From positions 136,106-180,966 of the forward strand of contig JBBQBA010000002.1 of the NCBI GenBank assembly GCA_038317055.1: a stretch of 44,861 nucleotides of DNA. The letters run 5' to 3'. The translations under genes were made by a program, and so were the position numbers. Position 1 is the first letter of the stretch; the number at the start of each line of letters is the position of its first letter. The notes under the pieces were generated by a model that saw nothing but the letters and a program-made list of their open reading frames with translations, did not search any database and was not told the origin of the DNA. This stretch comes from Candidatus Saccharimonadales bacterium (lineage in GTDB: Bacteria; Patescibacteriota; Saccharimonadia; Saccharimonadales; DATKHC01). This document shows positions 3,822 to 27,769 of this stretch, one piece after another.

Positions 3822-3942
3822 GGTTGTTAGATAATCTCATATAATTAAATATTTGCAAGCTAAAGCATGTTAATATTGATCCCGCTATTGGTTGCGGTAG
3901 GATAGCTCAACCTTTATACTTTTTTCTATAGACGGGGTTAGT

Positions 3943-4530
3943 ATGGTAAAGACAAAAGACAAATTTTTAATTGATAACTTGAACGCAAAAGGTCGTTATA
4001 TTGAAAAGTTTGATCGTTTAGAAGAGATTGTTAAAGCTCTTCGTGTAATTGGTGCAAAAATCGTCTTAACCCAAGGGACTTTTGACTTTATTCATGTTGG
4101 ACATTTCTTATATCTCGAAAGAGCAAAATCACACGGCGATATATTGATTGTCGGCGTAGACAGTGATGAAAAAGTTAGAAATAGAAAGGGGCCAGACCGC
4201 CCAATAGTCAACGAGAATGAGCGTTTAGATATGTTAACCCACGTAAGACACGTTGATTTAGTAGCATTGAAAACAGCTAAAATGCCTCATTGGAATCTAA
4301 TTAAAATCATAAAACCGGACACATTAATTGCTACTAAAGAAACTTATTCAACTAAAGAAATTAAAGAGTTAAATAAAATTTGTGGTGAAGTTATTGTGCT
4401 AGCTCCTCAGGCTACAACCTCTACAACCGCAAAGATTCGACGATTAAATATAGGATTGTCTGAAAAGATTAAAAGAGCAGTCACTGAATCTATAAATGAT
4501 ACTTTTGAAAAATTAGTCGATGAAGCGTGA
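3943..4530 (+). CDS. Cytidylyltransferase-family nucleotidyltransferase (RfaE domain II / TagD-like)
   Basis: GTFDFIHVGHFLYLERAK carries the (H/T)xGH signature of the cytidylyltransferase superfamily. Size is 195 aa. Confidence 0.7.
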   Translation: MVKTKDKFLIDNLNAKGRYIEKFDRLEEIVKALRVIGAKIVLTQGTFDFIHVGHFLYLERAKSHGDILIVGVDSDEKVRNRKGPDRPIVNENERLDMLTHVRHVDLVALKTAKMPHWNLIKIIKPDTLIATKETYSTKEIKELNKICGEVIVLAPQATTSTTAKIRRLNIGLSEKIKRAVTESINDTFEKLVDEA

Positions 4531-5440: not shown

Positions 5441-5879
5441 GTTGACTACTCATTTTAAACCTGACAGGGTCTTTATCTTCTGAATCTTTATCTCCTACAA
5501 GTAATTGAGCATGTAAATGTTCCACACTACCACCGTTATATCGCATATCACCAGATCTCATACCTACCCCGTAACTGGTTAAACTATATTTAACTTCAAC
5601 AAGTGCAACTATATCTAAAAATTCAGACCTAGCAGACTTAGAAAGACTATTAATTGTCTTTACGTGTTTTTTTGATATCAGCAGGAAATGATACTTAGTG
5701 TTTTTATATGGAAAGTCGTTATTTTTAACATACCAATTGTCTGTTTCAATTATTATTTTTGATGTTGTTTCAGATTTAATGTTTTTTGGGCAAAAAGCAC
5801 AAACTTTTCTTCGGTCGAGATCAATCATTCGATCCAATTGTTCTTTAGCGCGTGCAGCATCAAAGTTATATTGAGCCAT
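5430..5879 (-). CDS. HIT-superfamily protein, HxHxQ (transferase/phosphorylase branch-like)
   Basis: CAFCPKN plus VEHLHAQLLV. The third His of the histidine triad is Gln, as in the GalT/Ap4A-phosphorylase branch. Its start overlaps the folA stop by 1 nt. Confidence 0.65.
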   Translation of the reverse strand: MAQYNFDAARAKEQLDRMIDLDRRKVCAFCPKNIKSETTSKIIIETDNWYVKNNDFPYKNTKYHFLLISKKHVKTINSLSKSARSEFLDIVALVEVKYSLTSYGVGMRSGDMRYNGGSVEHLHAQLLVGDKDSEDKDPVRFKMSSQPKN

Positions 5880-6382
5880 TACATCTTTCGTAGCTCAATA
5901 AAATCATAATCAAATTGGTTTTTCTCATCATTTTTATATTCTTGTTTGTTTATAGTTTTCCATTCATGTGGGTTTAGCTCAGGAAAAAAAGCATCACCAT
6001 CAATTTTAGTGTGTACGGTAGTTAAAAATATATGGTTAACAATTCCGGCATCAATAGCACTCTTATATAGTTGTCCTCCACCAATAATAAAACAAAAATC
6101 GTCACTTAAATCGATAGATTTACCTAAATCTTTGATTGATTTAAAAACCTCAAAACCATCCGGTACTTGAGTAAGTGAAGTCGATATTATTAAATTTCGG
6201 CGATTCGGAAGTGGTTTACCTAGACTGTTAATAATTGACTCATAAGTCTTTCGTCCCATAACAACTGTATGATTTTCAGTTATTTCCCTAAAGTGCTTCA
6301 TATCGTTAGATAATCGCCACGGTATAGTGTTAGCTTTTCCTATTACATGATTCTCTGATTCGGCAACAACTATTGTACTCAT
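5879..6382 (-). CDS. folA: Dihydrofolate reductase
   Basis: 167 aa. IPWRLSNDMKHFREIT, GRKTYESI and IIGGGQLY are classic DHFR motifs. ATGA overlap with thyA. Confidence 0.85.
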   Translation of the reverse strand: MSTIVVAESENHVIGKANTIPWRLSNDMKHFREITENHTVVMGRKTYESIINSLGKPLPNRRNLIISTSLTQVPDGFEVFKSIKDLGKSIDLSDDFCFIIGGGQLYKSAIDAGIVNHIFLTTVHTKIDGDAFFPELNPHEWKTINKQEYKNDEKNQFDYDFIELRKM

Positions 6383-7272
6383 GTCGCTACCGGTATTTTT
6401 AGGATTGAAGGATGAGGATCATAATCAGAAAGTTCAAAGTGTTCAGATCGAAAATCAAATATACTATTAATTTTTAAACCTTCCTTAGTTAGTTTTACGG
6501 TCGGAAGTTTTAGTGGTTTTCGTTTAATCATTTCTCTAACTTTTTCAATTTGATCTTCATAAATATGAGAATCTGAAATAGTGTGAATGTATTCGGTTGG
6601 TTCATAACCAGTTAAATGACCAATCATAATTAATAGTGCGGCATATTGAACCATATTAGACGGTACTCCAATTGGAACATCACCTGAACGCTGAAACATA
6701 TGGAGATATAATTTGCTATCTATAACACGAACATGAACCCAACCATGACACGGTGCAATAGTCACTTTTTGATGTTTACCCTTACCACGAACAATATACT
6801 GAGGAATCCAGGGTGTCACAAAATGTGTTCTCAACTCAGGTAACTCTTTAATTTGTTCGATAAGATGTTTAAATTGATTAAAGTTTTTGCCATCCTGAGT
6901 TGGAAAATCATGAAATGCGGCTCCGTATGAACCGGGTCCGATATCACCTTCTACTAATCCTCGTTTTTCAGTTTTTTCCTTCGAAGTCCAAGCGCCCCAC
7001 CAAGTACAGCCAAATTTTGCAAGTTCTTCAGTAGTCCTAGCGCCGTTTATAAATGCACAAAGTTCTCCGATTGGTTTTTGCCAAAAAGACAGTAGGCTTC
7101 TGTCTGTGATAAGCGGAAAACCATTATTTATTTTAAAGTGCATTTGAGTACCAATTACTGTTAGAGCTCTTGGTCCTTGTCTAGTATCACTAAAAACACC
7201 ATTCTTTAGAATATTTTTTAATAAATCAGAATATTGAGCATCCGGTATTCGTTTTGCAAAATCCTTATACAT
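6379..7272 (-). CDS. thyA: Thymidylate synthase (ThyA type, divergent)
   Basis: 297 aa with the catalytic APCH motif, QRSGDVPIGVPSN (QRS.D...G.P.N) and SDSHIY (GD.H.Y equivalent). Coupling to folA supports a DHF-producing ThyA. Confidence 0.8.
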   Translation of the reverse strand: MYKDFAKRIPDAQYSDLLKNILKNGVFSDTRQGPRALTVIGTQMHFKINNGFPLITDRSLLSFWQKPIGELCAFINGARTTEELAKFGCTWWGAWTSKEKTEKRGLVEGDIGPGSYGAAFHDFPTQDGKNFNQFKHLIEQIKELPELRTHFVTPWIPQYIVRGKGKHQKVTIAPCHGWVHVRVIDSKLYLHMFQRSGDVPIGVPSNMVQYAALLIMIGHLTGYEPTEYIHTISDSHIYEDQIEKVREMIKRKPLKLPTVKLTKEGLKINSIFDFRSEHFELSDYDPHPSILKIPVAT

Positions 7273-11552: not shown

Positions 11553-12530
11553 ATGGCAGAATCTAAAGCAAAAGTTAAGACAGAGTCAAAGACTAAAAAA
11601 ACAAAAGTAGAGAAGATTGAAGATCCAAAAGTAATAGTTGAGACTCCAGCTGAGGCTATCGAAGAGATAGAGGTTGAAAACACAGATTCTGATGAAGAAA
11701 AACTTGCTAAATCTGGAAAACGTAGTGCTAAAGCGGTAAAAGAAACCGAAGAGAAAGAAGCTAAAGAGGAACGTAAGAAATCCAAAGATACAGACGAAGA
11801 GGCGCAAAAACCTAAAATTATACAGAAACCATCCAGATCAATTTTGGAGCGAAAGGGCAAGAAATATCAAGAAGCTTCAAAGCAGATAGAAAAAGATAAA
11901 TTCTATAGTTTAAGCGATGCACTCAGTTTAGCGGTTAAAACAAGCACATCTAAGTTTGATTCGACAGTAGAACTACACGTTAGGCTTGGAGTAGATCCCA
12001 GACAAGCCGATCAGAACATTAGAGATAATGTAACTCTTCCTTCAGGAAGCGGTAAGTCATTAAAGGTAGCTGTTTATGGTGAAGAAGATGCTGTTACTGC
12101 CGCTAAAAAAGCTGGCGCTGAGATAGCACTAGGCGATGAAATGTTACAACAATTAGAAAAAGGAATTATGGATTTTGATATTCTTATCACCACCCCTTCA
12201 CAAATGCAGAAACTAAGTAAGTATGCTCGTGTACTGGGTCCTAAAGGATTAATGCCTAACCCTAAAAATGGCTCAGTTACTACCGACATCGCTAAGGCTG
12301 TAAATGAAGCAAAAGCCGGTAAGGTTGAGTATCGTATCGATAGCACAGGTATTATTCATCTCGGAATTGGCAAAGTGAGTTTCGGTCAAACAAAACTTCA
12401 AGCGAATGCTGAGACTGTACTCGCTAGTATTAAAGCAAATAAACCTTCAAGTCTTAAGGGTAACTATGTAGTTTCTGTTTACGCTACAACTAGCATGGGC
12501 CCTTCTATTCAAATTGACCGTAATATATAA
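11553..12530 (+). CDS. rplA: 50S ribosomal protein L1 with a roughly 95-aa Lys/Glu-rich N-terminal extension
   Basis: From about residue 100 (KKYQEASKQIEKDKFYSL...VELHVRLGVDPRQADQNIR...LGPKGLMPNPK) the protein is canonical L1. Residues 1-95 are low-complexity K/E-rich. Confidence 0.9.
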   Translation: MAESKAKVKTESKTKKTKVEKIEDPKVIVETPAEAIEEIEVENTDSDEEKLAKSGKRSAKAVKETEEKEAKEERKKSKDTDEEAQKPKIIQKPSRSILERKGKKYQEASKQIEKDKFYSLSDALSLAVKTSTSKFDSTVELHVRLGVDPRQADQNIRDNVTLPSGSGKSLKVAVYGEEDAVTAAKKAGAEIALGDEMLQQLEKGIMDFDILITTPSQMQKLSKYARVLGPKGLMPNPKNGSVTTDIAKAVNEAKAGKVEYRIDSTGIIHLGIGKVSFGQTKLQANAETVLASIKANKPSSLKGNYVVSVYATTSMGPSIQIDRNI

Positions 12531-12540
12531 AAAATTATTA

Positions 12541-12569
12541 GTTCGAATCCCACAACTCCAGCCATAAGC
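12541..12569 (+). repeat. Array repeat R1; a tRNA 3'-fragment (G53 to CCA) with no 5' part
   Basis: GTTCGAATCCCACAACTCCAGCCATAAGC. This parses as T-loop TTCGAAT, 5-nt T-stem strand CCCAC, 7-nt acceptor strand AACTCCA, G73, CCA. The upstream bases (ATTAG) cannot form the T stem. Starts 10 nt after the rplA stop. Confidence 0.8.
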
Positions 12570-12572
12570 ACT

Positions 12573-12600
12573 TTGGCAAATCGAATAATTAGTGTATAAA
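12573..12600 (+). promoter_or_regulatory. Candidate promoter of cassette 1
   Basis: TTGGCA, 16-nt spacer, TATAAA. The -35 lies in the tail of R1. ATG 12610 begins 10 nt after the -10. Confidence 0.4.
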
Positions 12601-12609
12601 TTGTCTTAT

Positions 12610-12807
12610 ATGAATAGATATAAAAGCTCATGGGAAGGAACTAATATTCCACCTGATGAAATGGATCCAGTAACTGTATCAATAGACGAAATTGAAAGAG
12701 GCCAAAGAGTTAACATAGAGGTTAGACACGAAGATGGAACGGTAAAAAACTTCCATATATATACAATACCTCTTCTTGAGACTATCGAACCCCCGTTGCC
12801 TCTTTAG
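12610..12807 (+). CDS. Small hypothetical protein (cassette 1)
   Basis: 65 aa from ATG 12610; the ORF track starts at GTG 12592 (71 aa). The C-terminal codons and the TAG stop lie inside degenerate repeat copy R1b. Confidence 0.4.
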   Translation: MNRYKSSWEGTNIPPDEMDPVTVSIDEIERGQRVNIEVRHEDGTVKNFHIYTIPLLETIEPPLPL

Positions 12808-12816
12808 ACCATAAGC
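12785..12816 (+). repeat. Degenerate array repeat (R1b)
   Basis: TCGAACCCCCGTTGCCTCTTTAGACCATAAGC shares TCGAA-CCC, CTTTAG and CCATAAGC with R1 and R9. Confidence 0.35.
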
Positions 12817-12840
12817 GGGTAAATAGCTTCCATTTAGACA

Positions 12841-12877
12841 GTTCTGAACTCGGACTCTAGCCCCAGCCAAGCATAAG
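12841..12877 (+). repeat. Array repeat R2
   Basis: GTTCTGAACTCGGACTCTAGCCCCAGCCAAGCATAAG. Contains the 10-mer CCCAGCCAAG, identical to tRNA-Gln 39366-39375. Confidence 0.8.
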
Positions 12878-12884
12878 TATAATG

Positions 12885-12910
12885 AAAGACTTTTTCGGAA
12901 GTCTTTTTTT
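12885..12910 (+). terminator. Rho-independent terminator
   Basis: AAAGACTT / loop TTCGG-type / AAGTCTTT 8-bp perfect stem followed by a T-run (12907-12910). Lies downstream of R2, so R2 would be transcribed in the 3' UTR. Confidence 0.6.
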
Positions 12911-12916
12911 AAAGAT

Positions 12917-12925
12917 TGCTATACT
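12917..12925 (+). promoter_or_regulatory. Extended -10 promoter of cassette 2 (leaderless geometry)
   Basis: TGcTATACT. ATG 12932 begins exactly 7 nt after the last -10 base. No SD. Confidence 0.45.
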
Positions 12926-12931
12926 TTTTAT

Positions 12932-13531
12932 ATGAGTAAAGTAACATGTGGTATAGCGATGTCCTTGGACGGTTTTGTTGCAGGTAATAATTTGACTTTA
13001 GAAAATCCGTTCGGTGATATAAAACCAGAAATACTCATGAAGTGGATGTTCGATGAGCCCGAGAAGCATAAGAAAGAGATTGAATCGCTGACTACTGCGG
13101 GTGCATTTATTATGGGAAGTAACATGTTTGGACCCGAGGACATCCGTATGACTGATGCCTGGAAAGGCTGGTGGGGTGATAATCCACCATACCATGCCCC
13201 AGTATTTGTTTTATCACACACGAAAAGAGACCCAATAGTTATGGATGGCGGCACAACCTTTACTTTTGTAACTGATGGTATCGAATCAGCATTGAAACTC
13301 GCACGATCCGCAGCTGGAACAAAAGATGTGGATATTGCAGGCGGTGCCAATACTATTAATCAGTATCTTAGAGCTGGGCATATAGATGAATTGTGGCTAC
13401 ACATTGTTCCCGTGACTATCGGCCATGGCCAACGACTTTTTTCGGATATGCCAGACATTCATTTTAAACCACTGGAAGTACGAACGACCGATTTAGTGAC
13501 ACATATCAAATACACTATTGTTCGTACCTAA
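12932..13531 (+). CDS. RibD C-terminal domain / dihydrofolate-reductase-family protein (cassette 2)
   Basis: 199 aa. MSKVTCGIAMSLDGFVAG..., GSNMFGP and DIAGGANTINQYLRAGHIDELWLHIVPV are typical of the RibD_C (YwjB/YyaP-like) family. Confidence 0.8.
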   Translation: MSKVTCGIAMSLDGFVAGNNLTLENPFGDIKPEILMKWMFDEPEKHKKEIESLTTAGAFIMGSNMFGPEDIRMTDAWKGWWGDNPPYHAPVFVLSHTKRDPIVMDGGTTFTFVTDGIESALKLARSAAGTKDVDIAGGANTINQYLRAGHIDELWLHIVPVTIGHGQRLFSDMPDIHFKPLEVRTTDLVTHIKYTIVRT

Positions 13532-13545
13532 AATACCTGATTGTA

Positions 13546-13586
13546 GTTCTGAGATCCGACTCCAGCCCTTGCCAAACTATATAGGA
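13546..13586 (+). repeat. Array repeat R3 (the copy most like tRNA-Gln plus its flank)
   Basis: GTTCTGAGATCCGACTCCAGCCCTTGCCAAACTATATAGGA. The head matches the tRNA-Gln T-loop region with two 1-nt insertions. The tail matches the flank after tRNA-Gln in 15 of 17 alignment columns (1 mismatch, 1 single-nt gap). Confidence 0.75.
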
Positions 13587-13637
13587 ATGCCCCTTTTTTA
13601 ATTGAAATTAAGGTGGGTGTTGATTGTATTTAAAGGC

Positions 13638-13673
13638 GTTTAACACTGAACATAATGTCCAGCCAAGCATTAG
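13638..13673 (+). repeat. Array repeat R4 (internally deleted copy)
   Basis: GTT-TAACA-CTGAAC...GTCCAGCCAAGCATTAG. Shares CTGAAC and CCAGCCAAGCAT-AG with R2. The unit between R3 and R4 has no ORF. Confidence 0.55.
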
Positions 13674-13713
13674 CACTATGACACTATTCTTGGAATCTTT
13701 TCGATCGGATTAT

Positions 13714-14061
13714 TTAGTGACGCCTTAGGTATTCAAGCAGGACTTGCGCGTGATTAACTGTTGGATCATGGGCCGCGTAGAGTAATGTGGTCGTGAGATG
13801 TTCTTTAAGGATACTCTTTAGCTGCGACACTACTGGGTTAATATCAAGCTCCAATTCATAACGAACTGTAAATTCAGCGAACCGCTCTGGCTTGTGGTCA
13901 AACCATGTTCGTAGGTCAGAAGAGGGTGCGATATCTTTGAGCCACAAGTCCAACAGCGCCTTTTCCTTACTAACTCCTCTTGGCCATAATCTATCAATCA
14001 GCACCCGATAGCCGTCAGCCTTCAAAGGTTTGTCGTAGATTCGTTTTATAGAAATAGCCAT
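13714..14061 (-). CDS. DUF488 (YeaO-like) protein (cassette 4, opposite strand)
   Basis: MAISIKRIYDKPLKADGYRVLIDRLWPRGVSKEKA...WLKDIAPSSDLRTWFDH closely parallels the E. coli YeaO architecture. The ORF-track start at 14103 adds 14 unlikely residues. TATTAT lies 9 nt upstream of ATG 14061. Confidence 0.8.
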   Translation of the reverse strand: MAISIKRIYDKPLKADGYRVLIDRLWPRGVSKEKALLDLWLKDIAPSSDLRTWFDHKPERFAEFTVRYELELDINPVVSQLKSILKEHLTTTLLYAAHDPTVNHAQVLLEYLRRH

Positions 14062-14161
14062 GTACTTTTTATAATACGCCGAATCAATCGTGTTTCTCAA
14101 CAATTAATCAAATAGTGGTACAATATTTGGTAACGGTAAAATACAAAAAGAACGTTTTTTT

Positions 14162-15575
14162 ATGACGGGAACACACCCTCTAGGCAAAGCAATAAAAGAC
14201 CTGATGATTAAAGATGTGCCTAGCTATGGTAACAAGCTTTTCTATTCTTTGGGCTTTTTGTCAATGATATCATTCTTAGTTCTCATAGTTACAGGTACAA
14301 TTATGGCAATGTACGGCCCGAATTGGTGGCTAACCAGCAGCTTTGGTACTTACTTGCGCAGCGTCCATTTATGGGCCACACAAGCCTTCGTATTGTTTAT
14401 ATTGCTCCATGTGCTAATAGTGTTCTTTACGTCCGGCTTTAAGAAACCACGTCGGCTCACGTGGGTTCTTGGTGTACTTATGTTGTTTATTGTGCTTGCG
14501 GAAACTGAGTTTGGGTATGTCCTTAGAGGCGACTTTTTCCTCGCAGTGGAGAGGTTTACAAGGAGCTGACTTCTATAATGGCAGCGGACTTGGCAAGTAC
14601 TTTAACCCCTTAAATTATAATCAGATATACGGCATACACATTGTTGTAATACCACTGTCTATAATTGGCTTACTCTTTTTACATTATTTGTTAGTCCGCG
14701 TGCTAGGCATTGCCAAGCCATATAGAAAAGACGTCCATGTTAAAACCGTATCCGCGAATCATAAAATCCTATTTATGCGTGGCGGCGTCCTTGTTGTTCT
14801 CATACTGGGATTAGCTGTAGTTCTGCCCTCCCCATACATAAAACCAACGACTATCCAATCGGTCGCTCTACAAGATCCGATACTATTTAGCAAAACGGTC
14901 GTTTCTGAGCTTGATCATTCCTCAGACACTGCTACATATGTCGACAACATTGCCCCTTATACTTACGACACGCGTTCAATTTACGTTACACAGCCGTACA
15001 CTCAGCTTTTACAAACCCGTGCCATAGTTGTTAATAATCTGTCACTATTCTTCACCGAACCACGAGCAATCCAAGATCAACAGATAAAAACTCTCTCCGA
15101 CTATTTAGCTAACGATAATGCCGACTTCGCCAAGCTACCTACTAGCCCTGTTTCATCAATTGCAAAATCCTTAACCATTATGGCGCAGGCTGGGTTATAC
15201 GAGTCATCACTAAATAGCAACAGCAGCGTGACCAAATTTAAAGATGGGACCACTTACTCTAGTCGCTTTTTATCAGACACGGGGGTGCTTGAAGACAAAG
15301 CCACAGCCCTAAATATTACGACGGATCAGTACGGTATGATAAGAGAGGAAAAAGGGCACACTCCCGGCGCCTGGTGGTTAGGTCCGATTGGCATACTAAA
15401 CCATACTGTTCTTAAGAATGATGATACTGGCGATCGGGATGGCGCCATAATTTTCGGCTCGTTATTGCTCACGATGTTAGCATTTCCGTTCATCCCTTAT
15501 GTTAACCAACTTCCTGACAAGCTCAAAGTATACAAGTTAATTTGGCATGAAAAAGGCGGTCGTTTAACGAAATAG
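14162..15575 (+). pseudogene. Cytochrome b N-terminal-domain-like membrane protein, interrupted by a 1-nt frameshift in a T5 run
   Basis: Frame 1 (14162-14569) has LRSVHLWATQAFVLFILLHVL (cytochrome b/b6-like His-containing helices) and ends 30 nt after TTTTT at 14534-14538. Frame +1 (to 15575) continues as ...SSQWRGLQGADFYNG. Skipping one T joins GYVLRGDF to SSQWRG. Confidence 0.65.
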
Positions 15576-15606
15576 TTCCTGGTCCATATACTCAGTCAGC
15601 GTAAGC
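15575..15606 (+). repeat. Degenerate array repeat (R5)
   Basis: GTTCCTGGTCCATATACTCAGTCAGCGTAAGC shares GTTC.., ..TC..., CAGC.TAAGC with the family. Starts on the G of the TAG stop. Confidence 0.35.
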
Positions 15607-15628
15607 TGTTTGGGATTTATATCCAGTC

Positions 15629-15637
15629 TGATAATAT
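15629..15637 (+). promoter_or_regulatory. Extended -10 promoter of cassette 5 (leaderless geometry)
   Basis: TGaTAATAT. ATG 15644 begins exactly 7 nt after the -10. Confidence 0.4.
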
Positions 15638-15643
15638 GATTCT

Positions 15644-15913
15644 ATGAAACAGAGTAAACTCATCCTATCTCTTATAACAATTGATGCAATTGTATTTATA
15701 TTTTCTTTATCCGCAACAATTAATAATATCCAGAGACTCGAAGGGTCTATTAATAACACTCCAGTATGCAACACCGCTGCAAATGGAGGACCCTGCTATC
15801 TAACTTCAAATTTATGGGCATACTTCACTATAATGATTCTTACTGCTGGGATTATGGGGCTGCTTGCCGCCCATCTTTATAAACGAGTTATAGATAAACC
15901 AGAACCGAAATAG
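15644..15913 (+). CDS. Small two-TM membrane protein (cassette 5)
   Basis: 89 aa with two hydrophobic helices (LILSLITIDAIVFIFSL and YFTIMILTAGIMGLLAAHL). Confidence 0.5.
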   Translation: MKQSKLILSLITIDAIVFIFSLSATINNIQRLEGSINNTPVCNTAANGGPCYLTSNLWAYFTIMILTAGIMGLLAAHLYKRVIDKPEPK

Positions 15914-15933
15914 AGTCATATTTGTCCTAAAAT

Positions 15934-15966
15934 GTTCGGAACTCGGACTGGATGATCAGCCATTAG
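15934..15966 (+). repeat. Array repeat R6
   Basis: GTTCGGAACTCGGACTGGATGATCAGCCATTAG. The first 16 nt are identical to R7. Confidence 0.8.
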
Positions 15967-15987
15967 TGGTTTAACTATTTAGTGGGT

Positions 15988-16016
15988 TTGATTTATCTTA
16001 AATTAAGTCGGATAAT
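15988..16016 (+). promoter_or_regulatory. Candidate promoter of cassette 6
   Basis: TTGATT, 17-nt spacer, GATAAT. An SD GGGGA at 16031-16035 precedes ATG 16041. Confidence 0.45.
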
Positions 16017-16040
16017 AGGTACATTAAATAGGGGAATGAC

Positions 16041-16886
16041 ATGCCGAACTTAGATATGGACAGAATGTTTGAGTCTATGACAGAGCCAACAGAATTGACT
16101 GCTGAAATTGATTTAATTGGGAAAGAAGGCCAAGGTGATTTTAGAGTATCTGAAATACATGGTGGAGTACTAAATTTTTCTGAAACTATCTTCAAAGGTG
16201 TGCCTTTAGATAGTGTATATGCTCAAGAGGGTCATAGGGAGGCACAAGGTAAAGGTCCACATTTTGATTTATCGGGCGATTTTCTAGATGAACAATACCC
16301 AATACTTGGTGTTTATAACTTGTCAGGTTTCTCGATTTTGAGATTAGCTACTATGCCTGATCAACTGGCTAAGGCTTATTTTGATACATATCCTGAGCTT
16401 AATGAGGCAGCTTACGAAGCGAGAAGGCAATTTGGAGCTATTGTATTGAATGCTCCAAATATTCAATCGTTTGAAGGCAATTTTACGCCAGGTATGGCAT
16501 TAGTGATACCTCAACTAAAGAACCATGAAGGTCCTCATGTAGTCCACGAGATTATTCCGACAGGTCATGGAAATACTTTCGGAAAATATGTAAAATTAGC
16601 AGTTCCCGACTATGAAAGTGATACTGCAGTGGAAATGTTAAAGAACGATGGCTTTATTCCATTGGATGAGCTAGTAACATCTCGTTTAACCGGAGAAGAC
16701 GAAGCCAATGACAGCATAGTTAGACCAGTGGTTGTACCGGGGGTGTCTGTTTCCGATAAAAATGGTGGAATAATAGATGCATTTACTGAAGGAAGATTGC
16801 CTGCTGACCCTACTCAACCTAATAGCAGAACTACAAGAATCCCACGCCCAACTGGAAGAGCGCGAAGATCAGGCTTAATAGATTGA
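16041..16886 (+). CDS. Hypothetical protein (cassette 6), possible HxD...H cupin/oxygenase-like
   Basis: 281-aa ORF. Motif order PHFD ... GFSILRL ... GPHVVHE parallels ORF 8786-9532. Pro/Arg-rich C-terminal tail. Confidence 0.6.
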   Translation: MPNLDMDRMFESMTEPTELTAEIDLIGKEGQGDFRVSEIHGGVLNFSETIFKGVPLDSVYAQEGHREAQGKGPHFDLSGDFLDEQYPILGVYNLSGFSILRLATMPDQLAKAYFDTYPELNEAAYEARRQFGAIVLNAPNIQSFEGNFTPGMALVIPQLKNHEGPHVVHEIIPTGHGNTFGKYVKLAVPDYESDTAVEMLKNDGFIPLDELVTSRLTGEDEANDSIVRPVVVPGVSVSDKNGGIIDAFTEGRLPADPTQPNSRTTRIPRPTGRARRSGLID

Positions 16887-16948
16887 TCAAGTTTATAATT
16901 GGTTAATGTGTTAACTGTTAGGAAAATGTAATATCTGACACCTTAATT

Positions 16949-16982
16949 GTTCGGAACTCGGACTATAGCTCCAGCCATAAAC
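16949..16982 (+). repeat. Array repeat R7 (closest to consensus)
   Basis: GTTCGGAACTCGGACTATAGCTCCAGCCATAAAC. The tail GCCATAAACATTTTGAC parallels the R1 tail GCCATAAGCACTTTGGC. Confidence 0.85.
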
Positions 16983-17038
16983 ATTTTGACCTCAATCAAC
17001 TTTTATGTCGTAAAGTTTAAGTTTTAGTTACTTACGGG

Positions 17039-17047
17039 TGATATAAT
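17039..17047 (+). promoter_or_regulatory. Extended -10 promoter of cassette 7 (leaderless geometry)
   Basis: TGaTATAAT (perfect TGnTATAAT). ATG 17054 begins exactly 7 nt after the -10. Confidence 0.5.
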
Positions 17048-17053
17048 TAGATA

Positions 17054-17302
17054 ATGAGTTTAACAAGTACAGATCTAGCAGATATTAGAGGCATTCTTAA
17101 GGAGGAGCTAGAGCTACTACAAGGTGAGCTTAAAGCTTTGAGTAATGATATAAATGTTATTTACCAAATGATCTCTGATTTACAGAATAAAACATTACCA
17201 AATAAGTAATTCCAAAAACTTAGCGTGTAGCAGAAGCTTATAAAATTAAACTCTGACCTTCTTTTTGCTGCAAAACAAGCTGGTGTACGGTTACCGCGAT
17301 AA
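17054..17302 (+). pseudogene. Small coiled-coil ORF (51 aa to TAA 17207-17209) whose frame continues through TAA and TAG to 17302; likely a decayed gene
   Basis: MSLTSTDLADIRGILKEELELLQGELKALSNDINVIYQMISDLQNKTLPNK*FQKLSV*QKLIKLNSDLLFAAKQAGVRLPR*, all in one frame. Below the ORF-track size cut-off. Confidence 0.35.
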
Positions 17303-17320
17303 TTGAATATAACCTAAAAA

Positions 17321-17352
17321 GTTATGTACTCAACCTCTAGCCCCAGCCAAAT
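17321..17352 (+). repeat. Array repeat R8
   Basis: GTTATGTACTCAACCTCTAGCCCCAGCCAAAT. The 3' half CTCTAGCCCCAGCCAA is identical to R2. Confidence 0.7.
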
Positions 17353-17361
17353 TACTTAAAC

Positions 17362-17390
17362 TTGCATTGAGACATGAATAGTAAGATACT
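17362..17390 (+). promoter_or_regulatory. Candidate promoter of cassette 8
   Basis: TTGCAT, 17-nt spacer, GATACT. An SD GGAG at 17406-17409 precedes ATG 17417. Confidence 0.4.
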
Positions 17391-17416
17391 TTCATTAGAT
17401 TTAATCGGAGACAAGC

Positions 17417-17797
17417 ATGAAAATACGAAGTAAGTTAAATGAAGAAAGACATCCTGAATTCCTACCATCAGAATGTCTAGGAGAAGCATGTCCGAATTTC
17501 ACCGGTTCAGCCTGTGATGATAGTGAAGTTGAATGGATGAGAGCGGACGCTCCGACCAAAAAAAGAGATACAAAAAAACCACCTTTTAAAGATGACACAA
17601 GATATATAATTTATGGACAACGATGTCTGACTGGAGAGGGCCCAGAATTAGTAGCACAACGAGTAGAAATTTATAAACCTGACGAAGTTAATATGGCTGG
17701 AATCATTGCAATAACAGGCATGTATGGCGAAATGCCAGTTGAAGTTGTAAACGGGTATCTATCTGGGTCTATTCAGAATATCGTTACTTCAGAATAA
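17417..17797 (+). CDS. Hypothetical protein (cassette 8)
   Basis: 126-aa ORF with a GGAG SD. Cys-containing N-terminus (ECLGEACPNFTGSAC). No family recognised. Confidence 0.55.
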   Translation: MKIRSKLNEERHPEFLPSECLGEACPNFTGSACDDSEVEWMRADAPTKKRDTKKPPFKDDTRYIIYGQRCLTGEGPELVAQRVEIYKPDEVNMAGIIAITGMYGEMPVEVVNGYLSGSIQNIVTSE

Positions 17798-17798
17798 A

Positions 17799-17832
17799 GT
17801 TCGGAACTCGGTCTTTAGCTCCAGTCAAGATG
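17799..17832 (+). repeat. Array repeat R9 (last clear copy)
   Basis: GTTCGGAACTCGGTCTTTAGCTCCAGTCAAGATG, with 1 nt between it and the stop of the preceding ORF. Confidence 0.8.
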
Positions 17833-17862
17833 TAACCTTATTTTTACAATACTTGCACTAAA

Positions 17863-17871
17863 TGTTACTAT
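17863..17871 (+). promoter_or_regulatory. Extended -10 promoter upstream of the patatin-like gene
   Basis: TGtTACTAT. This geometry favours ATG 17881 (10 nt after the -10) over the ORF-track ATG 17872, which abuts the -10. Confidence 0.4.
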
Positions 17872-18864
17872 ATGTTCTCAATGAGTTTGGAAGTTTTAGA
17901 TATATTAAAGGAACGGTCATTAGACGGCTATATATCAGGTTATGATAATGACGAGCATAATGTAGTTATTTCTATAGACAGCGGGGGCATGGCGGGTTCT
18001 GTTGGTTGTGGATCCCTAGAGGTTCTACAGGAAGAAGGCTTACTTAAAGTAGTCGATGGTTACTCTGGGGCATCAATCGGAGCAATTATTGCCTCATATG
18101 CTGCATTAGGTCGCATCGATCAAATTGAAGAAGCATTTACTGAACCGATGACTGAGACTAGATTTATGGCTTCTAATTTACTAGGTAGAGTTGCATCCTA
18201 TGTTAGTTTCAAAAGAGATAAAACCGGAAATATTCCAGCCGCACAAAATATGGGAGTACTTGGTGACATTATTCATGGAGATCTCGATACAAAAAATCTA
18301 AGAATGTCTGAAGTACCAATAGTAGCTAGTATCACATCTTTAGATGAGTTTGAAACAGTTGGTCGAGACCTAAGAGAACTAAATGATAATCAAATTATAG
18401 ATTTTTTAACTCGTGGTTGTGCGTTTCCATTTGTAAGCGGCCAATATATTGGAGTTGAAGGCATTACCAGTCGAGCAATTGATGGTGCTTTTACTTTGTT
18501 AGCTAGCGAACAACTCGCACTTTCGCTAGACCCAACTAATATTCTAAGTATAGGGCTTACACCATATAAAAAATGGGAATATGGAATAAAAGAAAAACTA
18601 GCTAGAAGAATAGTTGGAATGTGGTTAGCTCAAGATGCAGGATTAGGTGTAAATATATATAAAAAATACGTCCAGCTGGGTGATGTACAAGCCGAGTATT
18701 TAAAACAGTTTAGTAAGAGTGGCTTTACTCTAAATGGAGTGATTGTGGAGAAAGTATATCCACGGGCTGATAAAGATTTGCCAGGTAGACTTACTATGGA
18801 TCCTAATAAGATAAAAAGAGGTTTCATATTAGGACGACAGGCAATGCAAACTGCGCTTAAATAA
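17872..18864 (+). CDS. Patatin-like phospholipase
   Basis: DSGGMAGSVG (oxyanion Gly-rich loop), GASIG (GxSxG nucleophile) and AIDGAF (catalytic Asp, DGA). The start may be 17881. Confidence 0.75.
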   Translation: MFSMSLEVLDILKERSLDGYISGYDNDEHNVVISIDSGGMAGSVGCGSLEVLQEEGLLKVVDGYSGASIGAIIASYAALGRIDQIEEAFTEPMTETRFMASNLLGRVASYVSFKRDKTGNIPAAQNMGVLGDIIHGDLDTKNLRMSEVPIVASITSLDEFETVGRDLRELNDNQIIDFLTRGCAFPFVSGQYIGVEGITSRAIDGAFTLLASEQLALSLDPTNILSIGLTPYKKWEYGIKEKLARRIVGMWLAQDAGLGVNIYKKYVQLGDVQAEYLKQFSKSGFTLNGVIVEKVYPRADKDLPGRLTMDPNKIKRGFILGRQAMQTALK

Positions 18865-18931
18865 AAGGTAAATAATTAAAATAATTATAATATACAAGAT
18901 CGCAAATAAATCGTTTTACTCCTAATTTAAA

Positions 18932-19114
18932 TTAAAGTATTTTCTGGTCAGGTTTAATTACTTGATCTGATTGTTTCACTGTGGAGCCATTGAGTGGCTC
19001 GTTGCTGATATGCATCTGATCAATATTTATTGTTGATACTGGAGTTAAACTACCAAGATCTTTCAGCGAACGATGATGAAATTTCCAATAAACAAATCCA
19101 CTTCCAAGTAACAC
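18932..19114 (-). CDS. Small protein; probable N-terminal TM anchor lies upstream of any canonical start
   Basis: The frame is open from 19189. The hydrophobic helix SIYYLLATVVLVLLGSGFVYW is cut by the only canonical start (GTG 19114). Only ATT codons lie further upstream. Confidence 0.3.
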   Translation of the reverse strand: MLLGSGFVYWKFHHRSLKDLGSLTPVSTINIDQMHISNEPLNGSTVKQSDQVIKPDQKIL

Positions 19115-19181
19115 AAGAACTACAGTAGCTAGTAAGTAATAAATTGAGTCAGAATTAGTGCTTTTACTAATAGGTTTAGTA

Positions 19182-20198
19182 CTAACTAGCTAACTCTATA
19201 CTTAGTAGTTTATTTTGAGCGCTGGTGAGTGTAACTTGCGTACTAGTAATTTTGTTGTTGGGTCCAACAACAATAATGGTGTGTTTACCAATTAAAACAT
19301 TTTGAAAAGTAGCTAGTCCGTCTTTATCTGTCGTAACGGACATTTTGTTATCCAGGGTTACTTTAGCTCCCGGGATTGATTGAGCCTGTTTAGTATCGAC
19401 AGCTACAGTTAGCGTGGCGGTTGATTTAACGGTAGACGAATCGACTAATGGATTTGTTGAGCTTGGTATCGCTGCTGTAATAGCTGGTGTGGTTGTGGTG
19501 GTAGTTGTTGTTTTCTTAGATGAAGAACTAGAACCTGTTCCAGAAACCGGGGTTGACCCTGAGCTTTGGGCTGGGGTAGATGTAGTTAAAAAAGTCAAAT
19601 TTTGGACTGCATTATCATTTGATACATCGCCAAAACTGAGATTACAGATATAACCCGCCGCAACCTGAGCAGGAGTTGGAGGACAAGGATATTTAGCTGC
19701 GTCAACAGCGGCATCACCGCCCGTACTATCTGTACCTGTATTTGGAGGTCCAACTGTGCCGGTAACGATAGTAAAGGCCGTTGAAGGTATATTTCCACTA
19801 CTATCAGTGTTTACTAACGCTGAAAAAGGCTTAGAGCACGATACAGGTATTGGATTCCCGAAAAAAGTGATTGTAGGTTGACTTGGATCGCTATTACATT
19901 CAAGTATTGATCCAGTTGAATTTGCCGTAAAACCTGACCCCGAAACAGTAACAACCTGTCCGTTACTAAGGTTAGTGCTTGGCGTGACACTCATGGACCC
20001 GGATGCCCAAATAACAACGGGACTAAATATATAAGCTACTACTGAAATAGTAAGTAAATATTTTATTATATTTTGTTTTATTGAAGTTTGTTTTTCTATA
20101 GTGATGCTCCTAGAACTATAGTCTACTTTGATTATACAATTAAATTGGATATTAAATATATATAATAATTTCATAAATCTCACCACTACAGTGGTCAT
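19182..20198 (-). CDS. Secreted/cell-surface protein with a poly-Thr linker
   Basis: Hydrophobic signal/anchor (YLLTISVVAYIFSPVVIWASG), a beta-rich domain (VTPSTNLSNGQVVTVSGSGF), a Ser/Thr-rich linker (KKTTTTTTTTP) and a C-terminal beta domain. Exact start uncertain. Confidence 0.6.
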   Translation of the reverse strand: MTTVVVRFMKLLYIFNIQFNCIIKVDYSSRSITIEKQTSIKQNIIKYLLTISVVAYIFSPVVIWASGSMSVTPSTNLSNGQVVTVSGSGFTANSTGSILECNSDPSQPTITFFGNPIPVSCSKPFSALVNTDSSGNIPSTAFTIVTGTVGPPNTGTDSTGGDAAVDAAKYPCPPTPAQVAAGYICNLSFGDVSNDNAVQNLTFLTTSTPAQSSGSTPVSGTGSSSSSKKTTTTTTTTPAITAAIPSSTNPLVDSSTVKSTATLTVAVDTKQAQSIPGAKVTLDNKMSVTTDKDGLATFQNVLIGKHTIIVVGPNNKITSTQVTLTSAQNKLLSIELAS

Positions 20199-20239
20199 AG
20201 GATAGGTTTTAGGTGAAATATCCCCTATAATACCTGGTT

Positions 20240-21898
20240 ATGCTCTTATCCGTTGAAATAGCTGAAAAATCTTTTGGTCATAAAACTCTATATAATGATT
20301 TAAGTTTTGATATTCAAGAAAATGAAAAAGTGGGATTTATCGGCAGGAATGGTACCGGTAAATCAACTTTGCTAAATTTAATAACCGGAGAAGATAAAGA
20401 TTTTCATGGTAAAGTTCAGATTAAGCGTGGAACAGTACTTATAAGTAGTAGGCAAGAACATCATGATCATGAAGCTAAGACAGTACTAGAATACATTCAG
20501 GGCGATTTACCGGAATACGCATACCTAACAAAGATTATCGATACATATCCAGACACGATGGGTAGTGACACTAGAAAACTACAAGTTTTTTCAGATGCGT
20601 TAGAACGTTTTGGTCAACTTGATTATTATCAAATTGAAGACGAAATTAAACAAGCTTTTGAAAGTTATCAAATTGACCCAAATAAACTTCATAAATCCAT
20701 TGGCTCATTAAGTGGTGGTGAGAAAAGAATGATAGAGCTAATTAAAGTCCAACGTAGCCGTGGGCATGTTGCACTAATTGACGAACCAACCAACCATATG
20801 GACTATGTTGCCAAAGCTGAGTTTATTAAGTGGCTCAAAAGTGCTCAAGAAGCTGTTCTTGTTATAACTCACGATAGAGACGTATTAACTACGGTAGATA
20901 GAATAATTGAGATTCGAGATGGAAAGTGTTTTAGCTTCCGAGGAAACTACGACGCATATTTAAAAACAAACACAAATCAAATTACTAATCAGGTTAATGA
21001 ATACGAATTATCTCAGAGACGTATAGCAAATCTCGAAGATGATGTTATTAGATTTAGACGATTAAAAGAAAAATCTCGTGATCCCGGTACAATTCATCGA
21101 TTTAAAGCACAAGAAACAAGAGCTAAAGACGAAATCGAAAAATTAAGAAAAACCGATAAACCTTCTTTTTGGATCGATCAAGAATCAGCAAACACGATGA
21201 ACGATAAATTAACGGCTGCTTATGACAAACATAAAGCCAAAAATATAAAAGTTTCGACCCGTAAAAAACATACAGATAGCGAAGGTAGGCGATTAATAAA
21301 AATTACTAAACTAAGCTTAGGATATGACGCCCCATTATTTAAAAATATTAACCTAGATCTACACGAGGGTGAGAGAATCAGACTACATGGTCGTAATGGG
21401 GCAGGTAAATCCACAATAGTTCAAGCGATTATGGCAGAAGCGAACAATCAGCAATTAGCATCTAAATGTTTTGATGGTTTAATAGAGGTTGAAAAAGAGA
21501 TAAAAATCGGACTATACGAACAAGAAATAAATTCTAGCTATTTAAAACTAACACTTAATGATGCACTTGAAAAAATCTTAGAAGATAAAAATCTTCCAAT
21601 TAATCCTCAAAAAATTAAACAACTTTTAAGCGATTATTTATTTAATCCTAATTCTGATGGGCAAATGTTAGTAGAACGATTAAGTGGCGGTCAAAAGGCA
21701 AGAGTACAGTTAATTTCAATGCTAGTTAATGATCCACAAGTATTAATTTTAGATGAACCAACAAATCACTTAGACCTACCTAGTATCGAAGAACTTGAAA
21801 ACTCCTTGAAAGATTATCATGGAGCTATAATATATATATCTCATGATAGCTTTTTTTCAAATAAAATGGGCGGTGATACCGTAACTATAAACGGTTAG
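20240..21898 (+). CDS. ABC-F family ATPase (two ABC domains, no TM domain)
   Basis: Two Walker A motifs (GRNGTGKST, GRNGAGKST), two signatures (LSGGEKRM, LSGGQKARV) and a charged inter-domain linker. Confidence 0.9.
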   Translation: MLLSVEIAEKSFGHKTLYNDLSFDIQENEKVGFIGRNGTGKSTLLNLITGEDKDFHGKVQIKRGTVLISSRQEHHDHEAKTVLEYIQGDLPEYAYLTKIIDTYPDTMGSDTRKLQVFSDALERFGQLDYYQIEDEIKQAFESYQIDPNKLHKSIGSLSGGEKRMIELIKVQRSRGHVALIDEPTNHMDYVAKAEFIKWLKSAQEAVLVITHDRDVLTTVDRIIEIRDGKCFSFRGNYDAYLKTNTNQITNQVNEYELSQRRIANLEDDVIRFRRLKEKSRDPGTIHRFKAQETRAKDEIEKLRKTDKPSFWIDQESANTMNDKLTAAYDKHKAKNIKVSTRKKHTDSEGRRLIKITKLSLGYDAPLFKNINLDLHEGERIRLHGRNGAGKSTIVQAIMAEANNQQLASKCFDGLIEVEKEIKIGLYEQEINSSYLKLTLNDALEKILEDKNLPINPQKIKQLLSDYLFNPNSDGQMLVERLSGGQKARVQLISMLVNDPQVLILDEPTNHLDLPSIEELENSLKDYHGAIIYISHDSFFSNKMGGDTVTING

Positions 21899-21959
21899 TT
21901 ATTAATTTAATATCCAATAGTCAGAATTGGTTATCTCATTATTGATATATAATGAACTT

Positions 21960-22511
21960 ATGTATTTAAGTAAGAATCAAGTTGCTCCAAACTTTACTAT
22001 TTCCGATATAAACGGCAAAAAGATTAAGTTAAGTGATTACGAAGGTAAAAAGCTACTTCTTTGTTTTTTTAGATATGCTGGTTGTCCATTCTGTAACTTA
22101 ATTCTTCAGAGTTTTATAGAACGCTACCCTAAACTTCATAAAAACGGTTTAGAGATATTAGCTTTTGTTCAATCTCCTAAAGAATCAATAATAGACTATA
22201 CGATGAAGCGTCATCATCCCAAACCACCTTTCCCCTTAATTGCTGATCCCAAACAAGAAATATACAAACTGTACGGAGTAGAAGCATCTGTGAGTAAGTT
22301 CGCTAGAAGTATTTTTAAAGTACCTTCTATGTTGAAAACTCTATATAAATATAAATATCCGCAAGGTAAAATAGACGGAAATGTTTTTTTAATGCCGGCA
22401 TTTTTCTTAATAGGTCCAGACGATCTAAAAATTTACGAATCTTATTATAGCCCTGATTTTTCAACGATGATACCAGATATAGATATAATCAATTTTCTCT
22501 CGGCGGTATAG
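21960..22511 (+). CDS. AhpC/TSA-redoxin family thioredoxin-fold protein (CPFC motif)
   Basis: APNFTISDINGKKIKLSDYEGKKLLLCFFRYAGCPFC is a peroxiredoxin-like N-terminus. ATG 21960 is preferred over TTG 21927. Confidence 0.65.
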   Translation: MYLSKNQVAPNFTISDINGKKIKLSDYEGKKLLLCFFRYAGCPFCNLILQSFIERYPKLHKNGLEILAFVQSPKESIIDYTMKRHHPKPPFPLIADPKQEIYKLYGVEASVSKFARSIFKVPSMLKTLYKYKYPQGKIDGNVFLMPAFFLIGPDDLKIYESYYSPDFSTMIPDIDIINFLSAV

Positions 22512-22514
22512 TCT

Positions 22515-24203: not shown

Positions 24204-24366
24204 AAGTCCATTTTTACACGACTATTGTAAGAACTTATCATAACAGGCACAAGCTTTTTTAGGGAGTCACAAAATAACCATATTCATATATAAAGGTTGT
24301 AGATTTGTGCTAGTGCTTGCATCACACATTTGACACCGCGTACACTATCTACTAAAGAGAGGTCGT

Positions 24367-27298: not shown

Positions 27299-27310
27299 TT
27301 AAATATAGGT

Positions 27311-27658: not shown

Positions 27659-27727
27659 TTTTATATTCCCAAAGATTTATTAACAAATAGAATCATAACT
27701 CTTGCATAGAATAAATCAAGTACATTA

Positions 27728-27756: not shown

Positions 27757-27769
27757 TACGAAGTTATTT

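Follow-up and report, generated by a model that had tools for sequence, protein, structure and literature searches.

A tRNA-Gln 3' end at the head of a co-directional repeat array downstream of rplA in a Saccharibacteria chromosome

Introduction

The genes rplA and rplJ of a Candidatus Saccharimonadales bacterium (assembly GCA_038317055.1, contig JBBQBA010000002.1) are separated by a region in which eight repeats follow one another in the same direction, and the first of them has the form of a tRNA 3' end. The question raised by this locus is why the end of a tRNA gene should stand at the head of such a row, and whether it marks a place at which genes have been taken up. The stretch analysed, referred to here as the window, has a length of 44,861 nucleotides (nt; contig positions 136,106 to 180,966, forward strand) and is a piece of a Saccharibacteria chromosome of low guanine-cytosine (GC) content. 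In Saccharibacteria, which live attached to other bacteria and whose genomes are very small, the gain and loss of genes are poorly understood. A few strains are in culture and open to genetic manipulation. The repeats, named C1 to C8, extend over positions 12541-17827 of the window, with starts at 12541, 12841, 13546, 13637, 15934, 16949, 17321 and 17799. C1 is a tRNA-Gln 3' end, and arrays of related sites begin directly at intact tRNA-Gln genes in other Saccharibacteria; the arrangement suggests that this tRNA end may act as a docking site for small gene cassettes.

The tRNA-Gln 3' end downstream of rplA

C1 starts with 24 nt, GTTCGAATCCCACAACTCCAGCCA (12541-12564), which fit without a gap to tRNA positions G53 to A76: G53, the T-loop TTCGAAT, the T-stem 3' strand CCCAC, the acceptor 3' strand AACTCCA, the discriminator base G73, and CCA. 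Both the A72/G73 end typical of tRNA-Gln and the exact spacing of a tRNA are present. The next 7 nt (12565-12571, TAAGCAC) represent a shortened tRNA-Gln trailer. The pattern GTTC[AG]A-N-[CT]C-N12-CCA matches three times on the two strands of the window, at tRNA-Trp, at tRNA-Gln and at C1, and the chance expectation for such a T-loop-to-CCA pattern, derived from 300 first-order Markov simulations, is 0.037 matches per window. The gap-free geometry described in an earlier sequence-only reading of this stretch has thus been borne out.

The remainder of the tRNA is missing. The stop codon of rplA occupies positions 12528-12530, and the 10 nt between it and G53 are too few for the 5' two-thirds of a tRNA. 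No tRNA is called at C1 by ARAGORN or Rfam (12460-12570), a complete cloverleaf being absent, and Rfam run over the array at a permissive threshold returned two weak chance matches, neither of which is a tRNA. These results confirm the earlier statement that the 5' strands are lacking.

Direct comparison of C1 with the resident tRNA-Gln 3' end (39350-39373) reproduces the 17 of 24 identical positions given previously. Among 87 tRNAs from Saccharibacteria loci, a sample in which tRNA-Gln is over-represented owing to the way of collection, C1 is nearest to tRNA-Gln 3' ends (best 21/24, median 0.83), the runners-up being Asn (0.79) and Trp (0.75); the proposed tRNA-Gln-type end therefore agrees with the closest class. 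The exact 21-mer of C1 was sought in one genome per species (185,579 species) and gave a single chance match, within a coding sequence, and no tRNA in that search matches the acceptor strand AACTCCA. The exact end of C1 is thus absent from all tRNAs searched, which indicates a diverged relic, not the duplicate of an existing tRNA. The sequence-only reading had named two results that would together refute it: the absence of this acceptor strand from the tRNAs of the lineage, which was observed, and frequent T-loop-to-CCA matches by chance, which were not.

Arrays at tRNA-Gln genes of other Saccharibacteria

The same collection of species genomes, together with metagenome contigs, has been searched with the repeat pattern; the comparison loci obtained are denoted by L-numbers. 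Several same-strand copies of the repeat were found in other Saccharibacteria, and in the arrays on metagenome contigs the sites are spaced by 350-650 nt. In L087 an intact tRNA-Gln(ctg) is followed by four sites on the same strand, and in L085 an intact tRNA-Gln(ttg) is followed by three. An intact target tRNA at the end of the insert is present in L085, L087 and L143; in the window only the 3' 24 nt are left. When the tRNA end and trailer of L087 (ATCCCCAGCCAAGCATAAGC) are compared with the adjacent repeat (ATGCCCAGCCAAGCATAAGC), about 20 nt at the end are almost the same: in the tRNA AGCATAAGC comes after GGTTCGAATCCCTCATCCCCAGCCA, in the next site after GTTCGGAACTCGGTCTGAATGCCCAGCCA, and the beginnings, GTTCG..AA, are similar.

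A search for a tRNA-Gln end followed by NNCATAAGC yielded 58 loci, about 50 of which are tRNA-Gln(ttg) or tRNA-Gln(ctg) genes of Saccharibacteria; the few matches from other organisms amount to about the number expected by chance (a rough estimate, not computed). In these approximately 50 loci (L101-L155), with GC contents from 35 to 53%, the 9-nt trailer AGCATAAGC past the tRNA-Gln CCA is nearly invariant; as the loci were selected by a pattern requiring CATAAGC, the independent signal consists of the many Saccharibacteria matches and of the conserved (A)nTATn and terminator that come after the trailer.

The tRNA-Gln gene stands at a sharp boundary. Upstream, the loci have ordinary core genes that recur in a conserved order; downstream, the genes scarcely recur. 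In five independent pairs of genomes the similarity spans the upstream genes and the tRNA and ends 9-10 nt past CCA, so the variable region starts directly after CCAGCCA followed by AGCATAAGC. At least 16 of these tRNA-Gln loci hold further same-strand copies of the core CCAGCCAAGCATAAGC, a 16-nt element composed of the last 7 nt of tRNA-Gln (CCAGCCA) and the 9 nt of trailer (AGCATAAGC). Each further copy of the core is preceded by a 22-nt arm, which is constant within a genome and lineage-specific, with five or more types (for example GTTCGGAACTCGGACTGGATGC, GTACGGAACTCAACCTCAATTC, GTTCGAAGTACGTCCACTAGGG, TCCTGAAACACATCCACTAGCC and GTTCTAATATTGTCGCTGATGC). A site composed of arm and core (38 nt) is termed X-type, and a G53-A76 end with its trailer is termed a T-type head. 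Direct repeats of the tRNA 3' end, in the form of the core, bound the inserts of L085, L087 and at least 14 more loci.

The subfamily of sites found in the window is represented by 40 sites in 20 loci, with one strand per locus and a spacing of 43-4382 nt. In L088, L093 and L095 the sequence that continues from identical 29-mers is unrelated from CCAGCCA onward, which supports a junction at or just past this motif. A variant junction, CCAGCCA followed by TAAGC, occurs in several loci, C1 among them.

The core of the claim that a tRNA 3' fragment in this place marks site-specific integration is supported by these comparisons: L085 and L087 have arrays with an intact tRNA-Gln at their start, and the variable region opens 9-10 nt past CCA. 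One correction concerns displacement, as C1 is not a copy moved to the far end of an element.

Among the cargo of related arrays, Pfam identified a heliorhodopsin, short-chain dehydrogenases and a Fic protein. Some gene pairs in such arrays (L083, in head orientation, 3856-4373; L085, 6757-7403) also look, by eye, like toxin-antitoxin pairs.

Organization of the array in the window

The sites of the window other than C1 have a 29-nt consensus, GTTCGGAACTCGGACTnnnnnnnCCAGCCA, for which 100 shuffles gave 0 chance matches, and nhmmer found no further copy elsewhere in the window. Most sites lie 1-110 nt past the end of a small open reading frame (ORF). The internal sites are 5 nt longer than tRNA geometry permits, and most of them have G at the position of tRNA A58, which shows that they are not tRNA fragments; with tRNA-Gln they share only its last 7 nt and the 9-nt trailer. 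The 16-nt core is present at C1, C2 and C4, and a weaker form of it at the remaining sites. The description of C1 as the first copy of a repeat is accordingly right in that C1 is the first of eight co-directional sites; the other repeats do not share its nature as a tRNA 3' fragment. The features of the array and the tRNA gene used for comparison are as follows (lengths of proteins in amino acids, aa).

11553-12530, + strand: rplA, ribosomal protein L1, 325 aa, left border of the array (Pfam Ribosomal_L1, E 1.4e-53)
12541-12571, + strand: C1, T-type head, the tRNA-Gln 3' fragment G53-A76 (12541-12564) with the shortened trailer
12572-12840, + strand: cassette a, with a 71-aa ORF (12592-12807) of no known family
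12841-12878, + strand: C2, X-type, 22-nt arm GTTCTGAACTCGGACTCTAGCC and 16-nt core CCAGCCAAGCATAAGT, one mismatch to the 29-nt consensus
12879-12912, + strand: native-type tRNA-Gln flank, ATAATG and then the rho-independent terminator AAAGACTTTTTCGGAAGTCTTTTTTT
12932-13531, + strand: gene of cassette b, RibD_C / dihydrofolate-reductase-like, 199 aa (Pfam PF01872, E 1.2e-17)
13546-13574, + strand: C3, degenerate X-type, GTTCTGAGATCCGACTCCAGCCCTTGCCA, 7 mismatches to the consensus (nhmmer E 1.9e-6)
13575-13636: interval, nearly empty
13637-13674, + strand: C4, X-type of a second arm subfamily, arm CGTTTAACACTGAACATAATGT and core CCAGCCAAGCATTAGC
13675-15933, unstranded: cassette d, 2.26 kb, with DUF488, a split cytochrome b-like gene and an 89-aa ORF (Pfam, ORF list)
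13714-14103, minus strand: DUF488 gene of cassette d (Pfam)
14162-14569 and 14469-15575: cytochrome b-like gene of cassette d, in two frames (Pfam)
15644-15913: 89-aa ORF of cassette d
15934-15962, + strand: C5, X-type, GTTCGGAACTCGGACTGGATGATCAGCCA
16041-16886, + strand: gene of cassette e, 281 aa, no Pfam match
16949-16977, + strand: C6, X-type, GTTCGGAACTCGGACTATAGCTCCAGCCA
17321-17349, + strand: C7, degenerate X-type, closing cassette f (51-aa ORF, 17054-17209)
17417-17797, + strand: gene of cassette g, 126 aa, no family match
17799-17827, + strand: C8, last X-type site and right end of the array, 1 nt past the stop codon of the 126-aa ORF
39300-39373, + strand: resident intact tRNA-Gln(ttg), for comparison; its trailer is AGACTATTT and not the conserved AGCATAAGC (39374-39390 compared), and no array follows it

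In Saccharibacteria a rho-independent terminator of the form AAAGACTTC...GAAGTCTTTTT commonly comes after the tRNA-Gln trailer, AGCATAAGC(A)nTATn, and trailer and terminator together are found behind an intact tRNA-Gln in, for example, L114, L115, L124, L129, L138 and L141. In the window it is C2 that is followed by AGCATAAGTATAATG and then by AAAGACTTTTTCGGAAGTCTTTTTTT, with a fold of -9.6 kcal/mol and a z-score of -2.0. C1 (tRNA end), cassette a, C2 (arm and core), and the native trailer with its terminator thus follow one another, the succession that one insertion into the core of a tRNA-Gln 3' end would leave. In several other loci, diverged versions of trailer and terminator come after the head as well as after X-type sites.

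As to the cargo, the RibD_C protein was found on the source contig only, and the 281-aa protein is an ORF without relatives (ORFan), its sole match among 5.8 billion protein clusters being itself. The arm and core of C4 also occur in the metagenome contig L098. The two cytochrome b-like ORFs overlap, which points to a frameshifted pseudogene or a sequencing error, and such a gene is unexpected cargo in an organism thought to have no respiratory chain. A 10,141-nt contig of the same metagenome (run X1), which aligns with the window at 16949-16989, carries a C6-like site with a different preceding sequence; after this site it continues with AACTATATAGGAA, the same 13 nt as those after C3 (13575-13587). 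This contig may represent a second array, or a strain variant with a common cassette start.

Array heads without an intact tRNA

The window is not alone in having a head reduced to a tRNA 3' end. Heads with such an end and no intact tRNA are found in L083, in L108, where five sites follow, in L153 and in L020. In L083, L108 and L020 about 45 nt of a decayed 5' part have been kept, alike in all three. In L083, 6 of the 7 acceptor-stem pairs survive, and alignment to a normal tRNA-Gln suggests that the anticodon arm has been deleted. No conserved fold was detected in the decayed heads beyond the acceptor-stem remnants, and no displaced tRNA-Gln 5' halves were found in arrays without an intact tRNA. 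The decayed tRNA-Gln genes that resemble each other, and that seem to lack the anticodon arm, stand at three heads from two genomes (L020, 10842-10915; L083, 6485-6556, minus strand; L108). A single pseudo-tRNA head may thus have been duplicated or relocated, perhaps along with its array.

Of these loci, L020 is the rplA locus of OY969420.1, a complete genome with at least three loci that carry such sites. A decayed tRNA-Gln, longer than C1, is located there 8 nt past the rplA stop codon; it ends in GATCGAATTCCTAATCCCCGGCCAAGCATAAGC and is followed by one cassette and one X-type site. The rplA gene of OY969420.1 has 77% nucleotide identity to that of the window over 509 nt, and OY969420.1 appears to be the closest relative found, since it shares the 29-nt repeat family and has a tRNA-Gln(ttg) 3' end identical to that of the window. 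In 30 other relatives no such head follows rplA, and most of them, as judged by eye, have a terminator hairpin at this place.

An intact tRNA between rplA and rplJ, which the sequence-only reading thought worth seeking in relatives, was found in none of the 32 examined. Its remark that no tRNA gene adjoins the array of the window is correct, C1 itself occupying the head position where a tRNA would be expected. Because C1 sits at the array head, where the tRNA would sit, it is read as the stump of a lost tRNA-Gln paralogue and not as a displaced copy. On the simplest reading, an extra tRNA-Gln would have been present after rplA, as the head of an array, in the common ancestor of the lineages of the window and of OY969420.1, and its body would then have decayed in OY969420.1 and been deleted in the lineage of the window.

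Proposed mechanism of cassette docking

The sequences show the anatomy of the arrays, their homology to tRNA-Gln, the presence of like arrays in other genomes and the point at which the variable region begins. These findings can be united in one model, to which we give somewhat better than even chances: the tRNA-Gln 3' end with its trailer is a docking site for cassettes, and C1 is the remnant of an extra tRNA-Gln past rplA. The docking site would consist of the last 24 nt of tRNA-Gln, from the T-loop to CCA, and the first 9 nt of the trailer. The cassettes would be small, usually with one gene, and each would bring its own 38-nt site, made of the lineage-specific 22-nt arm and the 16-nt core (CCAGCCA and AGCATAAGC), the latter being identical to the end of the docking site. 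A circular cassette would recombine with the docking site inside this shared core, leaving the tRNA intact. It would land directly after the tRNA, with arm and core placed at its far side. Repeated rounds would produce a co-directional array with a head of tRNA geometry and internal sites that are all composed of arm and core. In the window, this would account for the succession of C1, cassette a, C2, the original tRNA-Gln trailer with its terminator, and six more sites; the body of the tRNA upstream of G53 would have been lost later, while the part serving as docking site survived. As no recombinase is encoded nearby, the enzyme would probably be an unlinked one acting in trans.

Several results weigh against this model. 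Pfam scans of the larger ORFs of the window revealed no recombinase, and jackhmmer searches with XerD and Hin as queries, run without a positive control on ORFs of at least 90 aa from about 130 related loci, revealed no integrase; the two queries were themselves confirmed as members of the integrase and resolvase families. No excision or circle joints were present in the contigs of the sole public run that holds the locus. In DNA comparisons between loci, no cassette with clean boundaries was recovered from two different array positions. Related genes do not keep one orientation with respect to the sites, and the degree of decay of the site copies does not follow their order in the array. Finally, most tRNA-Gln loci with the conserved trailer lack an array in the 8-kb block fetched, and the conservation of the trailer may hence relate to the tRNA itself.

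The cargo genes of L085 and L087 likewise include no recombinase according to Pfam. The recombinase candidates obtained in a motif screen, namely a GTPase, a glycogen-debranching-like protein and a Fic protein, were rejected as false positives. With the 29-mer pattern the site was found to be absent from viral contigs; a viral origin had also been considered through the 17-nt core, whose one match lies in a high-GC coding region, is due to chance and was discarded.

A broader proposal, which is held tentatively and at somewhat less than even chances, is that Saccharibacteria possess an integron-like platform of their own for gene capture, with a docking site at tRNA-Gln, unstructured 38-nt cassette sites, a recombinase encoded elsewhere, and the ability to dock without the tRNA body. 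A docking site able to work without the tRNA body would explain the persistence of tRNA-Gln stubs at the heads of arrays in several genomes.

If the docking model is true, the one-by-one docking of cassettes at tRNA-Gln would give small genomes a compact means of exchanging accessory genes. A so far unrecognised recombinase would be implied as well, and genes could be inserted into Saccharibacteria at a natural, defined site. For annotation, the model accounts for a class of tRNA-like fragments and 38-nt repeats to which present tools assign no label. Searches of the full-text literature did not turn up an account of such arrays in Saccharibacteria.

Alternative explanations

The array could instead be a decayed island, in which full-size, integrase-bearing elements entered tRNA-Gln serially in the manner of tycheposons and deletions afterwards left only cargo and the scars of attachment sites. 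Tycheposons are a known origin of tRNA-adjacent islands with scattered partial tRNAs (10.1101/2020.12.28.424599), and the degenerate sites C3 and C7, as well as the almost empty interval 13575-13636, would suit such a history. We nevertheless regard it as unlikely: neither an integrase nor a fragment of one was found in the window (Pfam) or in the approximately 130 loci, including the 20 with the site type (jackhmmer); most intervals consist of one intact ORF of 0.3-1 kb whose end lies 1-60 nt before a site; the internal sites form a distinct conserved type and are not displaced tRNA ends; and no viral contig carries the site.

A second possibility dispenses with a dedicated recombinase. The 38-nt sites would here be short homology anchors, and arrays would exchange cassettes by natural transformation and RecA-dependent recombination. 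Saccharibacteria are reportedly naturally transformable, as is said in a Cell paper of 2023, no array has a recombinase near it, and the sites are without hairpin structure, all of which would be expected under this explanation. However, 16-38 nt is at the lower limit for homologous recombination, and three features are left unexplained: the origin of sites built from a tRNA end and an arm at every cassette border, the fixed end of similarity 9-10 nt past CCA, and the uniform direction of the sites within a locus. It is considered quite unlikely.

Alternatively, the copies of tRNA-Gln 3' end, trailer and terminator might function at the RNA level, as signals for the processing of transcript 3' ends or for termination, and might have spread by duplication. 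The sites do lie just past stop codons, and many loci have a terminator hairpin behind the core, like that of the real tRNA-Gln gene. Against such a role, the arm has no conserved or significant fold (z-scores -0.5 to +1.3), several cassettes have genes opposite to the strand of the sites (DUF488 in the window; most cassettes in L083 and L087), and among the loci examined the sites are confined to arrays with a tRNA-Gln-end head and do not occur genome-wide; this explanation seems very improbable.

That the likeness of C1 to a tRNA is accidental, C1 being a copy of the 29-nt repeat shortened by a 5-nt deletion, could be argued from the elements GTTCG..AA and CTCCAGCCATAA common to C1 and the neighbouring repeats and from the occurrence of its acceptor strand in no living tRNA, but is close to refuted by the chance expectation of 0.037, by the same 24-nt head of tRNA geometry in four other arrays and real tRNA-Gln heads in two, and by the fuller tRNA-Gln relic at the same place in L020.

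Genomic context of the array

The gene order of the window is tRNA-Trp (1844-1919), secE, nusG, rplK, rplA, the L10 leader (27753-27876), rplJ, rplL and tRNA-Gln(ttg). The distance between rplA and rplJ is 15.3 kb (12531-27752), and the array takes up about 5.3 kb of this gap; gaps of 4.3-8.3 kb are normal in the group, and the rplKAJL cluster is split throughout the order. In the rplA product the L1 domain covers only residues 128-317 of 325; the roughly 125 aa in front of it form a Lys- and Glu-rich N-terminal extension, at least part of which relatives seem to share.

Between rplA and rplJ, a fusion of thymidylate kinase and ThyX (735 aa) is encoded at 25091-27298, and a pair of ThyA and dihydrofolate reductase (DHFR) genes is located upstream at 5879-7272, with the RibD_C gene of the array as a further DHFR-like gene. 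Given the ThyX fusion and ThyA, the genome seems to hold both kinds of thymidylate synthase. Beyond the array there are genes for a 338-aa protein with neocarzinostatin-family and carboxypeptidase-regulatory-like domains (19182-20198, minus strand) and for a patatin-like phospholipase (17872-18864); these may be accessory genes lying outside any recognisable site.

Comparison with known systems

Several types of repeat or attachment site have been ruled out. An array of clustered regularly interspaced short palindromic repeats (CRISPR) is incompatible with the spacing of 43-4382 nt and with intervals that hold ORFs. A Xer/dif-type site is 28 bp long, with two 11-bp arms as mutual inverted repeats on either side of a 6-bp spacer; on inspection of the consensus, the outer 11-mers GTTCGGAACTC and ATGCCCAGCCA have no such relation. 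An integron attC site and a retroelement primer-binding site were both rejected on anatomy, the latter because the conserved trailer lies outside the mature tRNA.

The nearest described situation is that of the tycheposon islands of Prochlorococcus, which are anchored at tRNA genes and contain scattered partial tRNAs, and in which newcomers are thought to push older elements inward (10.1101/2020.12.28.424599). Tycheposons have their own tyrosine or large serine recombinase, usually also a replication module, and a size of several kb (10.1101/2020.12.28.424599). The arrays described here are like them in four respects: (i) a variable region right after a tRNA; (ii) direct repeats derived from the tRNA; (iii) accessory cargo; (iv) a streamlined host genome. 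In contrast to tycheposons, the units are mostly single genes, no recombinase was found in the 20 loci with the site type, and the internal sites are not partial tRNAs, being formed from a 22-nt arm, 7 nt of tRNA and 9 nt of trailer.

With integrons the arrays share small, co-directional, mostly single-gene cassettes and a head site distinct from the rest. In integrons the head site attI differs from the attC sites of the cassettes, and clusters of attC sites lacking integron-integrases (CALINs) are known, which resemble the present arrays in having no recombinase nearby. However, no IntI has been found, the head is the end of a tRNA gene, and the cassette genes occur in both orientations. There are also differences at the level of the site: unlike attC sites, which form hairpins and have R''/L''/L'/R' boxes, the present sites are not imperfect palindromes and have no significant fold (z-scores -0.5 to +1.3), and the GTTRRRY and RYYYAAC boxes are absent, the sites starting with GTTCGGA and having no reported inverted-repeat partner.

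A further parallel is offered by the cis-mobilizable elements (CIMEs) of streptococci. These are decayed, non-autonomous integrative conjugative elements of several kb with known helpers; they accumulate in tandem at a tRNA attachment site, and the integrase of a related element moves them. As in CIMEs, the units of the arrays are bounded by putative attachment sites, are devoid of recombination genes and lie side by side, and mobilisation in trans is presumed. They are far smaller than CIMEs, and no helper element is known for them.

With regard to the position of the exchange, Williams (Nucleic Acids Res, 2002) is said to have distinguished sublocation classes of integrases, among them enzymes that cross over at the extreme 3' end of the tRNA. 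The arrays resemble the targets of these 3'-end integrases, in that the identity block covers the acceptor 3' strand, CCA and a few trailer bases, and the tRNA is preserved; they differ from phage and island sites of this class in the absence of an adjacent integrase gene. On the best reading, the arrays of Saccharibacteria are a variant of tRNA-anchored islands that also resembles an integron.

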